A DNA stretch of 64,000 nucleotides from the NCBI GenBank assembly GCA_965219455.1, contig OZ244744.1:576001-640000 (forward strand), read 5' to 3'. Below are positions 13,183 to 15,322 of this stretch, in pieces (the stretch's first letter is position 1; every line of letters begins with the position of its first letter). This stretch comes from Candidatus Latescibacterota bacterium. GTDB lineage: Bacteria > Latescibacterota > UBA2968 > GCA-2709665. The notes below the pieces were generated by a model. The model did no database searches and had not been told where the DNA came from. It saw only the letters and a program-made list of their open reading frames with translations. The position numbers and the translations under genes were made by a program.

Positions 13183-13318
13183 TTTCTCCTCCTAACGACA
13201 ATGAGTGAAAGATAACGCATCTCCTCGCGGAATCAAAATCCCACATGCTTCATCGGCTGGACAGATGTACTCTCCAGATATTTCGCTGATCCTTTTCTCC
13301 GACAGCCGAAGCATGAAA

Positions 13319-15297
13319 GTAGAGTCGAGATGTGGCGCGGTGGTTTAGGAGTGGCCTATCTGTTTCCGCCCCTTTCGTCTGGCGGTGCCTCAATAGCCGC
13401 TCCGTGCTCCGTTTCCACATCCCGCTCGTCGAACCGGACGTGCGGATTTCCCGCATCCGGCTCTCGGACAAGGAGTCATGCGTTCGCCCACGGAAAGTTG
13501 CGCTTCTGCTCCTCCAGCCGGGTCAGGCCCAATGTATTGTAGAGGACCTCAGCAGGGAAGCGTGACGTTCCCTTTCCCGGGATTCGGTACTTGTTGCACA
13601 ACCACCAGCGGAGCCGTTTCCGGGTGTGGCTGTCCACACTCCGGTAGGTTTTGCTGACCGGACCCAGACAGAAGTAGTTGCCCCACCCTGCCAGCTTTCG
13701 GTTCAGGTGGGCAATCCGTTCTTGATGGTCTTTCAGCAGCCACCGTCGCGCCGTTGCCTCGCTGATGGCCCGGCAGATGTGCCGGATGGCCTTCTTTGAC
13801 GGGCGCGTGCCGATATAGGCCTTTCCCGTCTTTGGCGAGTAACAGCGACCGATGGTGTAGCCCAGAAAGTCAAATCGTCCTTCTGGAAGGGTGCATATGC
13901 CCGTCTTCTGCTCGTTGACCGTCAGCTTAAGCGCTTTCATGATGGATCGCATCGCGCGCATCGCTTCTTCTGCACTGCCGCGACAGCAGATCACAAAATC
14001 GTCAGCGTAGTTGACAATATGAGCCTTCAGGCGTTGCTGATATCCCAGAAGTTGCCACCCCAGAATGAACCGCCGCATATACAGGTTCGCCAACAACGGG
14101 GAGATAGGGGCGCCTTGCGGTGTCCCCCTTCCCTGATCCTTGTTCGGCGTCGCTCGACGTTTGCGGCCCCGCTTGTCCGTCTCCTCAATCGGCGCGGTCA
14201 GCCACATCTTGATCAGGCGCAGCATTCGCCCGTCCGAGATGCGACGCGCCACCGATTTCATCAACTCGGCGTGCGGGATCGTGTCAAAGTAGCCGCTCAA
14301 GTCGGCGTCGATCACCTGCGTGTGGCCACGGTTCACCAGAGTGTGCACGGCCCTTACAGCATCGTGCGCGCTCTTCCTGGGACGGTAGGCATACTGCTGC
14401 GCTGGCAGGTCCGCCTCGAAGATCGGCGAGATCACCAGCACCGTAGCGGTTTGCACCACACGGTCCTTCACCGTCGGGATGCCCAGCGGCCTTTGCTTTC
14501 CGTTCGGCTTGGGGATATACACCCGACGGATCGGGGAGACCCGATACGATTTGCTCCTTACGGCTTCCGACAGTTCACCTAACCACCGCTCTCGTCCATA
14601 TGACTCGATATCCTCGAACGTCTCGCCATCCACGCCCGCCGCGCCGCCATTGGCCTTGCAGCTTTGGTACGCGTGCAGCAGGATGTCCTCACGGTTTACC
14701 TTGTCATACAGCGCGTAGAATCGGTAATCGGGCGATTCCTTCGCTTTGGCATGCAACGTCCTCTGCAACTTCCGAACCTTGTCTGGAGGTCTTAGGCTCA
14801 TACCAATCTCCCGGCTCTCGCTCCTTTGACGTTGCCCTTGAACCAAGGCCCCTTTCCTCCACCGGCATTACCCGGCTTCTCCGGTACTACGGGCCTCTCC
14901 GCCACCCCACACGGCCCGGCCTGGCCCTCACGGGCTGCCGGTTGGTGTCTATACACCACCGCTGGGGCTTCCCGTGTTGCGTCGGAACTCCTTGTATACG
15001 TGCCTTCGCCATTACCCCGGCGGGACCGTTGGATGCGCGCGTTGCTGTCTTTTTCCAACGACGGCGGCCTTCCCCGATCCATGGGCGGGTCGGCTCCCGC
15101 ATTACCTTTTTTCGAGGCCTGCTCAGCGTTCACTCACGTTTCGGCCCGCATACTCGCCCAGTCGCCTTGCGACCTTCTGCACCGGAGGCTTCGGAGATGT
15201 CGTTACCTGCGTCTCCGCTCCGGTTGCTACCGACTGCAGCAACATTTGTCGGGTGGGACTTTCACCCACTGAAGTTCCGCGCCTTTTCACGGCGCAC
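13319..15297 (-). mobile_element. Complete group II intron
   Basis: 5' end GTGCGCC at 15297; domain V GAGCCGGATGCGGGAAATCCGCACGTCCGGTTC; 3' end CTCGACTCTAC at 13319. Confidence 0.92.
13476..14801 (-). CDS. ltrA: Group II intron reverse transcriptase/maturase, no evident endonuclease domain
   Basis: RPLGIPTVKDR, PQGAPISPLLAN, YADD and FDFLGY motifs; start codon uncertain (ORF open from 14846). Confidence 0.93.
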   Translation of the reverse strand: MSLRPPDKVRKLQRTLHAKAKESPDYRFYALYDKVNREDILLHAYQSCKANGGAAGVDGETFEDIESYGRERWLGELSEAVRSKSYRVSPIRRVYIPKPNGKQRPLGIPTVKDRVVQTATVLVISPIFEADLPAQQYAYRPRKSAHDAVRAVHTLVNRGHTQVIDADLSGYFDTIPHAELMKSVARRISDGRMLRLIKMWLTAPIEETDKRGRKRRATPNKDQGRGTPQGAPISPLLANLYMRRFILGWQLLGYQQRLKAHIVNYADDFVICCRGSAEEAMRAMRSIMKALKLTVNEQKTGICTLPEGRFDFLGYTIGRCYSPKTGKAYIGTRPSKKAIRHICRAISEATARRWLLKDHQERIAHLNRKLAGWGNYFCLGPVSKTYRSVDSHTRKRLRWWLCNKYRIPGKGTSRFPAEVLYNTLGLTRLEEQKRNFPWANA

Positions 15298-15322
15298 CAT
15301 GGATGTACAGGATAGGCAGGAC
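15298..15322 (-). repeat. ATCCTGT/ATCCATGT repeat, copy D (5' exon of the intron; continues at 13318-13311)
   Basis: Rejoined site GTCCTGCCTATCCTGTACATCCATG|TTTCATGC matches copy C (ATCCTGTGCATCCATGTTTCATAC). Confidence 0.85.

Follow-up and report, generated by a model that had tools for sequence, protein, structure and literature searches.

A group II intron of a Candidatus Latescibacterota bacterium that appears to use a short dispersed intergenic repeat as its homing site

A stretch of 64,000 nt from the genome of a Candidatus Latescibacterota bacterium (GenBank assembly GCA_965219455.1, contig OZ244744.1, positions 576,001 to 640,000 of the forward strand; hereafter the window) contains an intact group II intron of 1979 nt at 15297..13319 on the minus strand. 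The intron lies in a motif of about 30 nt that recurs through the 5.84-Mb, single-contig host genome (58% G+C) and that very probably serves as its homing site. As read from the sequence, the intron begins with GUGCG and ends with CUAC. Its 5' junction, at 15298|15297, is ...CCTGCCTATCCTGTACATCCATG|GTGCGCC (in shorter form ...TATCCTGTACATCCATG|GTGCG), and its 3' junction, at 13319|13318, is ...CTCGACTCTAC|TTTCATGC, that is, CTAC|TTTCATG. These are the limits given in a preliminary description of the sequence, and they agree with those of an orthologous site that lacks the intron. The 5' GUGYG and 3' AY ends, a domain V, and a domain I to IV (DI-DIV) core recognized by covariance models place the element in group II. 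With matches taken at gathering-score thresholds, Rfam finds RF02003 (group-II-D1D4-4) at 15271-15134 with 104 bits (cut-off 49) and RF00029 (domains V and VI) at 13465-13319 with 45 bits (cut-off 40).

Domain V (DV; 13431..13465, minus strand) carries a 5-nt loop, GAAAU, and domain VI (D6; 13319..13427, minus strand) is long and structured, with a bulged A at 13325, 7 nt before the intron's 3' end, in the minimum free energy (MFE) fold. The intron-encoded protein (IEP; 13476..14801, minus strand) has 441 residues and contains a reverse transcriptase (RT) domain (RVT_1, 1.9e-36), with YADD at residue 265, and a maturase domain (GIIM, 1.5e-13). Since only about 34 residues remain past GIIM, the protein has no DNA-binding/endonuclease (D/En) domain, as the preliminary description had claimed. 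The closest intron RTs elsewhere, 88-91% identical, come from metagenome-assembled genomes (MAGs) titled Candidatus Latescibacterota.

A blastn comparison of the intron with its own genome yields seven full copies at 99.7-100% identity (subfamily A), four full-length copies at about 88%, three derivatives of 730-758 nt that lack the open reading frame (ORF), and several fragments. All seven subfamily-A copies retain an intact IEP ORF with YADD; five of the proteins are identical and two have one residue changed. Each of the seven follows the sequence ...(T)ATCCTGyyyATCCTGTnnATCCATG (...ATCCTGTnnATCCATG) and precedes a T. The flanks are unrelated once one moves past about 30 nt on the upstream side and 1 nt on the downstream side (the 3' flanks begin TTCCCC, TTTCAT, TAAGTT and so on), and thus the copies represent separate insertions rather than duplicated segments. 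In the window, the occupied motif forms the 5' exon (15298..15327, minus strand). The genome contains 734 ATCCATG words, and all seven copies fall among the approximately 31 of these that have the upstream units. Exact CCTGT..ATCCATG sites number 31, of which seven are occupied, and 15 of the 31 cluster within 28 kb, a stretch to which the left part of the window belongs.

The end of the 5' exon is mirrored within the intron. The DId3 hairpin, CCCG-CCCATGGAT-CGGG at 15089-15073 (minus strand), exposes in its terminal loop the heptamer CATGGAT (15083-15077), the exact complement of exon positions -7 to -1 (ATCCATG, 15304-15298). The preliminary description had noted this complementarity, exactly as it is present, and had taken the loop to be exon-binding site 1 (EBS1), the partner of intron-binding site 1 (IBS1) in the exon. 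Paralogue loops, covariation across the family, and the consensus fold all agree with that assignment. It is precisely this loop that distinguishes the copies of about 88% identity and the ORF-less ones from subfamily A, and the paralogue loops TGATAGC, TGACGGC, TATCAGC and GGTTAGC each complement their own 5' exons through Watson-Crick or G-U pairs. In a set of 77 intron 5' ends located in 80 relative loci plus 14 own-genome copies, EBS1 and IBS1 form a mean of 6.10 of 7 pairs over 71 distinct loop/exon combinations, compared with 3.99 when the exons are shuffled (maximum 4.28 in 200 shuffles).

Two further contacts covary in the same way. EBS3, the variable nucleotide of GGGGUA-N-UGGCG, pairs with the first base of the 3' exon in 59 of 62 cases, 57 of them Watson-Crick (shuffled mean 27.1, maximum 39, 500 shuffles). 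In the present intron EBS3 is an A (15012..15012, minus strand), and its partner, IBS3 (13318..13318, minus strand), is a T, as it is in all seven subfamily-A copies. EBS2 lies in a segment AAA-NNNNN-AAUG and pairs with the 4 nt after a conserved TA (-17 to -15), which places the family IBS2 at about -14 to -11. The TA is present in 52 of 80 exons, and in these an average of 3.60 of the 4 pairs form, versus 2.72 when shuffled (maximum 3.04, 500 shuffles). In the consensus structure computed with RNAalifold from 28 diverse relatives (92 pairs, 54 with compensatory changes), CATGGAT falls in the terminal loop of DId3, a hairpin nested in DId; EBS2 occupies the 5' strand of the internal loop just before it; and EBS3 sits in the internal loop opposite, in a coordination-loop-like position.

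For subfamily A, these contacts define a target rule: T at -17 and A at -16, TCCT at -15 to -12, a 4-nt spacer, ATCCATG at -7 to -1, and T at +1. All parts of the rule come from the last two 9-mer units of the motif, and the EBS1 and EBS3/+1 matches are perfect in all seven copies. EBS2 of the present intron, AAGGU (15104..15108, minus strand), lies in the internal-loop strand AAAAAAGGUAAU and forms three of four pairs with the IBS2-like TCCT of its own target (15312-15309). The TA of the occupied site (15314-15313) is probably read by the IEP, because it recalls the protein-read T-15 in the target of RmInt1, as that target is given in passages of PMC4075523. Thus, the earlier proposal that EBS1-IBS1 pairing sets the target is correct for EBS1 but incomplete, since EBS3 with the +1 T, a weak EBS2 pairing, and a probable contact of the IEP with TA also take part. 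Most relatives, from many phyla, have YTAG or TTAR at -17 to -14, just upstream of IBS2; this sequence may be touched by the protein, as T-15 of RmInt1 is, or may be the stop codon of an upstream gene.

Introns in other genomes show the same preference. The 24-mer of the subfamily-A EBS1 hairpin is present in three of 41 related genomes, with seven copies in G000, 12 in G001 and three in G009, and the junction between motif and intron (14-24 nt) is found for 7/7, 11/12 and 2/3 of these, respectively, or 20 of 22. The other two copies lie at ectopic sites, one with TA at -17/-16 and GTCCATG, the second with TTCCCTG, which forms five of seven pairs. Another MAG holds four introns (L006, L009, L012 and L015) with RTs of 91% identity; they share this EBS1 and likewise occupy the motif, at other loci. 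Consequently, specificity for the motif is older than the latest burst of copies. Relatives with other loops sit in sites complementary to their own loops. At the orthologous locus of a congener, G003, the same upstream hairpin, the motif, and the leader of the downstream gene are present and the intron is absent; the junction at this empty site is exactly ...CCATCCATG|TAAGGTCTG.

The preliminary description had proposed that the intron retrohomes into the most conserved word of a dispersed repeat. The shared junctions, the EBS-IBS covariation, and the empty site support this proposal. Both checks that the preliminary description had set as able to refute it, the sites of other copies and relatives and the place of CATGGAT in the fold, also speak for it. 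It is very probable that the element is an active, endonuclease-less (En-minus), IIB-like intron of the IIE/IIF type (discussed below) that uses base pairing to retrohome into a short repeat dispersed in its host. In this process, the spliced intron RNA and the 441-residue RT/maturase would form a ribonucleoprotein (RNP), which would reverse-splice into DNA where EBS1 (CAUGGAU) pairs with ATCCATG. The A of EBS3 would pair with the T at +1, AAGGU of EBS2 would weakly contact TCCT, and the protein would probably read the TA at -17/-16, so that the last two 9-mer units of TATCCTGyyyATCCTGTnnATCCATG|T would supply every contact. Without an endonuclease, priming would presumably come from the replication fork. 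Because the motif is the core of an element of tens of copies, each genome should offer many homing sites that are mostly harmless.

Several observations weigh against this interpretation. The pairing of EBS2 with its own target is poor, with a U-U mismatch, and the spacing between IBS2 and IBS1 is 1 nt longer than in most relatives. Present-day splicing or mobility is not directly evidenced: in the contigs of four public runs none joins 13318 to 15298, which would be the spliced or empty form, and in the contigs of both RNA libraries the flanks of the locus are nearly without cover. (Two RNA-library contigs, X16 and X17, do contain pieces of the intron with at least 99% identity, which may be DNA carry-over.) At three of the seven occupied sites the intron parts the motif from a TAAGTT box that lies 36-45 nt before the neighbouring gene or its end, and insertion may therefore not always be neutral. 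The replication-strand bias expected of En-minus introns is unreadable here, as the GC skew is irregular; its cumulative curve has a minimum at about 3.5 Mb and a maximum at about 5.5 Mb/0, with changes of sign between. Finally, EBS1 groups are not cleanly monophyletic in a FastTree phylogeny of 29 full-length introns (no support values), so that introns residing in one genome may have switched or exchanged DI segments.

An association with the motif could also arise if the intron retrotransposed with relaxed specificity and only harmless insertions survived, in which case the motif would be no true homing site. The two ectopic copies, with 5-7 of 7 IBS1 pairs, the weak EBS2 pairing, and the fact that only seven of the 31 exact sites are occupied are compatible with such survivorship. 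However, one junction of 14-24 nt is common to 20 of 22 copies, the seven copies have chosen sites with upstream units from among 734 ATCCATG words, EBS1, EBS3 and the +1 base match perfectly in all of them, and the specificity has been kept across 9% divergence of the RT; we therefore regard this explanation as improbable. It is more improbable still that the copies were spread at the DNA level, by duplication or recombination of motif-flanked segments with the motif as recombination site and no reverse splicing. Motif copies do occur as inverted pairs, modules between such pairs are duplicated inside the island described below, and contig joints are seen at motif copies in the public runs, though these have sides of less than 30 nt and were discarded. 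Yet homology between intron copies ends exactly at GTGCG and CTAC, with differing 3' flanks and 5' flanks unrelated beyond about -30, the empty site is the precise equivalent of an excision, and EBS-IBS covariation across a family is not expected from recombination.

The preliminary description had likened the case to IIC introns, which use terminators or attC sites, and it might be asked whether the RNP reads a hairpin at the motif, with the EBS1 match being secondary. About 30 nt upstream of several motif copies there is indeed a terminator-like hairpin with a T run, and two copies that face each other could fold into a long hairpin when the DNA is single-stranded. Against this, the core of the motif is three direct 9-mers without a palindrome, five of the seven occupied copies are solitary, and the insertion point, inside the direct-repeat array, is about 30 nt from any upstream hairpin. 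Moreover, a covarying EBS2 is present, an element that IIC introns lack according to passages of PMC4075523 and PMC3753933. Structural recognition of this kind thus has hardly any likelihood, and retrohoming by base pairing into the repeat is retained as the preferred interpretation.

The same features bear on the class of the intron. Because EBS2 covaries with the exon and the target is not a stem-loop, the intron does not belong to IIC, and in this respect the earlier comparison does not hold. Instead, EBS1 and EBS2 both pair with the 5' exon, and a single-nucleotide EBS3 pairs with +1, rather than a δ-δ' interaction, all of which is IIB-like. Within the IIB-like introns the element is of the IIE/IIF type and perhaps leans to IIF; the hallmarks of these classes are those named in passages of Nagy et al. 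2013 (PMC3753933). An early DI hairpin bears in its loop the α sequence GUUGCU (15238..15243, minus strand), and the partner of α, α' (AGCAAC; 15041..15046, minus strand), sits at the tip of a second DId3 hairpin, in the terminal loop (RNAalifold consensus columns 256-263/302-309), which is an IIE/IIF hallmark. Among relatives, 97% of 168 cells of α/α' are paired (slid controls 31-65%), and four of the six pairs have a compensatory change. Domain V, GCGG-GAAAU-CCGC, has its 5-nt loop in place of the usual GNRA tetraloop, as in IIE/IIF, and this architecture of the 35-nt window is the same in 34 of 36 distinct DV sequences of relatives. Without its ORF the ribozyme measures about 608 nt (1979 minus a 1371-nt ORF), within the 450-700 nt of IIE/IIF introns without IEP. 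D6, of about 105 nt, forms a long stem in the MFE fold, and a long, highly structured D6 is noted as a IIF tendency in the same passages of PMC3753933. The intron therefore shares with the IIE/IIF introns described there the α' at the tip of a DId3 stem-loop, the DV loop, the ribozyme size, the absence of En, the covarying EBS2-IBS2 and, as noted for IIF, the long D6. It differs in its homing site, as a dispersed repeat is not described as such in the passages of PMC3753933 and of Toro and Martinez-Abarca 2013 (PMC3552965) that concern these introns.

Comparisons of the RT fit into this picture as follows. As regards class D (RmInt1-like), its best group II RT matches on pSymA of Sinorhizobium meliloti, among which RmInt1 may be, are 34-40% identical, an identity below that to many other lineages. 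It is 48.7% identical to an RT on a plasmid of Nitrobacter hamburgensis X14, which may belong to Ni.ha.I1 or I2; the Ni.ha (I1/I2) and D.a. introns are placed in class F/g3 in passages of PMC3552965. Introns of Planctomycetota, Acidobacteriota and Rhodocyclaceae MAGs have RTs 61-70% identical to it (Rhodocyclaceae 62-64%).

The repeat that the intron occupies is more than the conserved word of the preliminary description. It is dispersed, as stated there, but it forms the core of an inserted intergenic element that is polymorphic, exists in variants, and is found throughout the genus. The core consists of three direct 9-mers, two of the form ATCCTGnnn and one ATCCATG; it has no palindrome of the kind that defines repetitive extragenic palindromic (REP) sequences or bacterial interspersed mosaic elements, and palindromes arise only from inverted pairs of motif copies. 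When sites are anchored on the two upstream units alone, 32 are found (one in the reversed genome), of which 22 continue with NNNATCCATG, two do so with one mismatch, and three resume after a 33-nt hairpin element. According to crude, home-made gene calls, 34 of 37 motif copies are intergenic. Twelve of these 34 precede a start in the same sense by at most 150 nt (often by 33-62 nt), and a further 12 come immediately after the end of a convergent gene; by the same calls there is no rule of orientation.

The motif occurs 10-93 times per genome in all 14 further genomes of the genus that were searched (a reversed-pattern control gave 0 everywhere), in two of seven genomes from other genera of the family, and in two of 19 from a neighbouring family. 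Six assemblies of 1-5 contigs contain the motif and no subfamily-A intron, and thus the motif is independent of the intron. One orthologous intergenic spacer is short in six congeners (39-49 nt) and longer in another six (127-402 nt), five of which contain 9-mer arrays: G000 and G004 carry the ATCCATG-type array, and G003, G007 and G012 a related AATCCTG...ATCCTGATCCG array without ATCCATG. Since it is present or absent at orthologous intergenic sites, the element looks like a miniature inverted-repeat transposable element (MITE), although no clear terminal inverted repeat or target-site duplication could be defined for it. As to its nature, a portable promoter-like end, a REP-like site, and an inverton arm are all conceivable. 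A variant array, AATCCTGnnnAATCCTGTAAATCCTGATCCG...TTTTTGAAT, stands in congeners (L120, L128, L129) at the position that the ATCCATG-type array has in others, and is also present at genome positions 4892686 and 4903658. As this variant is without IBS1, it should be immune to the subfamily-A intron.

Other roles for the motif find little in their favour. It was considered as the operator of a regulon and rejected, as the eight downstream genes scanned, like the genes of the island described below, are functionally unrelated. It was also rejected as the 5' end of PD-(D/E)XK_3 genes, since only one of four paralogues adjoins a motif copy. A scan of 8500-19500 for σ70 promoters and terminators gave nine promoter-like sites versus 6.9 expected, and these do not coincide with motif copies; the one exception is a weak site (9/12) located 55 nt upstream of the intron. 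A relation to the -7 box (TAnnTTTG) typical of the Fibrobacterota-Chlorobiota-Bacteroidota (FCB) group is only a guess. Integron attC sites contain inverted core sites R''/R' (RYYYAAC / GTTRRRY) and have a neighbouring integrase; no integrase was found among the ORFs scanned, and the likeness to attC was compared by eye only. One motif copy is read in-frame, as NMDGQDGQDK, in an N6_Mtase/Methylase_S fusion, a restriction-modification (RM) methylase (L001 14430-14500, genome position about 574462). This copy is a minus-strand motif in a plus-strand ORF, and it is kept in the orthologues of G013, G012, G011 and G001.

Within the window, ATCCATGT occurs seven times, compared with 1.80 expected (sd 1.26), and none of 100 shuffles reached seven. 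The six unoccupied sites of the preliminary description (9051, 12059, 12720, 15797, 18583 and 18852) are all present, but the one at 12059 belongs to a split copy (12008..12065, plus strand), in which a 33-nt hairpin element (12023-12055) separates the second and third 9-mers. As a result of this insert, it lacks a contiguous TA/IBS2. A seventh ATCCATGT site, at 9098, is without upstream ATCCTG units. The copy at 9027..9057 (plus strand) has three 9-mers, ends ...ATCCATG|TAGGTC, and lies 62 nt upstream of an 82-residue ORF with a CMD-family match. The copy at 12721..12751 (minus strand), with 3' flank TTTCATAC, is the one that had been compared with the restored intron site, and the likeness indeed extends past the core (TTTCATACTTCGC versus TTTCATGCTTCGGC). 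The copy at 15773..15803 (plus strand) lies just left of an insertion sequence (IS). Farther right are a two-unit copy at 18584..18606 (minus strand; TTTATCCTGTGCATCCATG|TAAAGT) and a partly degenerate one at 18836..18858 (plus strand; CCGTCCTGTTCATCCATG|TAAGCC). Two degenerate copies can be added to those listed earlier: 15626..15656 (plus strand; ...TCTAACCATA), with AACCATA ending at 15656, and 17783..17813 (minus strand; ...TTCAACCATG), with AACCATG at 17782, to the right of the IS.

The sister introns of the genome use a different kind of site. Five EBS1 variants coexist (CATGGAT, TGATAGC, TGACGGC, TATCAGC and GGTTAGC), and seven of eight subfamily-B/C and ORF-less copies sit in short heptamer-periodic tracts (AGCnnTn), of which the genome has 32 with at least four units, versus 0 when reversed. 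In these tracts the genome has another dispersed repeat family that introns use for homing. Introns in heptamer tracts lie at genome positions 1948930, 4792995, 2846937, 2868085, 5574307, 2676127 and 1665598, and several of them are about 70 nt from GC-rich palindromes of the type GGGCGACC-N-GGTCGCCC. Among other relatives there are sets of several copies that share one 5' exon word in differing contexts, for example CTAGCCyGCATrTTGCA on four contigs of one MAG. Homing into short intergenic words that recur thus seems to be common in this lineage. The TGAATTT-type target word of another MAG is not a repeat in the present genome. In a further Latescibacterota MAG (L033, 1235-1984), the end of an ORF-less intron, CCCTAC, abuts the start of a full-length intron of the same family, GTGCGCC, and this arrangement is a tandem or nested insertion.

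These observations can be joined in a broader, tentative scheme, for which we would give rather less than an even chance. The 9-mer array, together with its ATCCTGATCCG variant and the heptamer tracts, may represent an undescribed short, portable intergenic module of the genus, set just upstream of gene starts or past gene ends (and once in-frame in a methylase), which acts as a landing pad for three or more mobile elements unrelated to one another, namely the intron, an IS, and the 33-nt hairpin. The IIF-like introns may have radiated by retuning EBS1, EBS2 and EBS3 from one such repeat to another, and such "repeat-hopping" might be a general route to high copy number.

The mechanism itself is ordinary retrohoming by an En-minus, IIB-like intron, and the closest studied case is RmInt1 of S. 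meliloti in ISRm2011-2. For RmInt1, passages of PMC4075523 give pairing of EBS1 with -1 to -7, of EBS2 with -9 to -13, and of EBS3 with +1, in addition to T-15, and a passage of PMC1802570 describes a multicopy genomic sequence as its homing site. As far as these passages go, both introns are without D/En, combine EBS1, EBS2 and EBS3 with the reading of an upstream T or TA, and use a multicopy homing site; the positions in the present case are IBS1 at -1 to -7, IBS2 at about -15 to -12, EBS3 at +1, and a conserved TA at -17 to -15. The RNA of the present intron differs from that of RmInt1 in its IIE/IIF hallmarks, and its target is the 30-nt core of a short non-coding element with tens of copies, whereas that of RmInt1 is an IS with a transposase gene. 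The IIC introns, according to passages of PMC4424553, likewise are En-minus and have many equivalent, mostly harmless intergenic sites. They differ in lacking EBS2 and in reading a DNA stem-loop, whereas the present intron reads sequence through EBS1, EBS2 and EBS3 in a non-palindromic core.

The intron family of Thermosynechococcus elongatus is reported to have proliferated by divergence of EBS sequences and to include ORF-less derivatives. The idea that retrohoming follows such divergence is cited in passages of PMC5088586 (see also PMC2882425). As in that family, several specificity subfamilies and ORF-less derivatives (here three) coexist in one genome; the present subfamilies each sit in short dispersed repeats, either the 9-mer array or the heptamer tracts. 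Targeting of REP sequences provides another parallel. A table of REP-targeting elements lists IS elements and a group II intron of Pseudomonas putida KT2440, two of nine copies of which are REP-associated (Tobes and Pareja 2006, PMC1525189). In both situations a short intergenic repeat is a shared landing pad, with an intron, an IS, and the 33-nt hairpin in or beside the motif in the present case. In contrast to the REP-associated intron, the association here is 7/7 (20/22 across three genomes) and is explained by EBS-IBS pairing, and the motif is a direct 9-mer array rather than a palindrome.

In the limited collection of literature searched, no bacterial group II intron is described as having a short, non-IS dispersed repeat as its homing site, and the P. 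putida intron is the nearest precedent found. Passages of a 2015 review (PMC4424553) distinguish three target strategies in bacteria: unique homing sites, terminators, and attC sites. The present intron falls between these, since its EBS/IBS reading is fully sequence-specific, yet its target is a short non-coding host repeat of tens of copies. What sets it apart is the type of site, a 30-nt core of a dispersed non-coding element that is read by sequence, and the case illustrates how an endonuclease-less intron may multiply without hitting genes. The five EBS1 variants and ORF-less derivatives within one genome constitute a natural series of retargeted paralogues for studies of specificity change. 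The compact IIE/IIF-type intron, with its defined 18-nt target rule, is a possible targetron candidate, and the work reveals, in an uncultured phylum, a family of periodic intergenic elements that had not been characterised.

Other elements are also present at the motif. The 33-nt hairpin element (CCTGCCTGTGCG...CGCAGACAGG) interrupts three motif copies at one and the same position, after the second 9-mer and before the third, at window positions 12023-12055 and at genome positions 1529650-1529682 and about 2362309-2362341. In G001 (L107, G001:C17) it is in-frame, as the 11 codons PVCRAGHGTGR, in the motif-coded linker of the RM methylase. By its appearance it may be a very small mobile element with specificity for the motif. 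The IS of the window (about 15835-17645) lies between plus-strand and minus-strand motif copies and encodes a DDE_Tnp_1_4 transposase (15888-17255, 8e-154); its depth in DNA-run contigs is about 5-6x that of its flanks. A second, diverged transposase of the IS family lies at 3566-5134.

The region from 563 to 598 kb of the genome (L001 together with window positions 1-21700) is an island of defence genes and mobile elements that holds half of the genome's motif copies. Its genes include a ResIII/HSDR_N restriction subunit, N6_Mtase with Methylase_S, PD-(D/E)XK_3, Schlafen AlbA_2, DUF3644, FRG+TPR, SIR2_2 and a Phd/PIN toxin-antitoxin pair, and it also contains two intron copies. Two homologous modules of about 340 bp, bounded by inverted motif copies, lie at genome positions 567304-567642 and 591297-591656 (window 15297-15656). 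Both contain another 9-mer periodic tract (TAATCACAG / TAATCATAG), and, judged from its layout, their inverted-pair architecture would suit an invertible segment.

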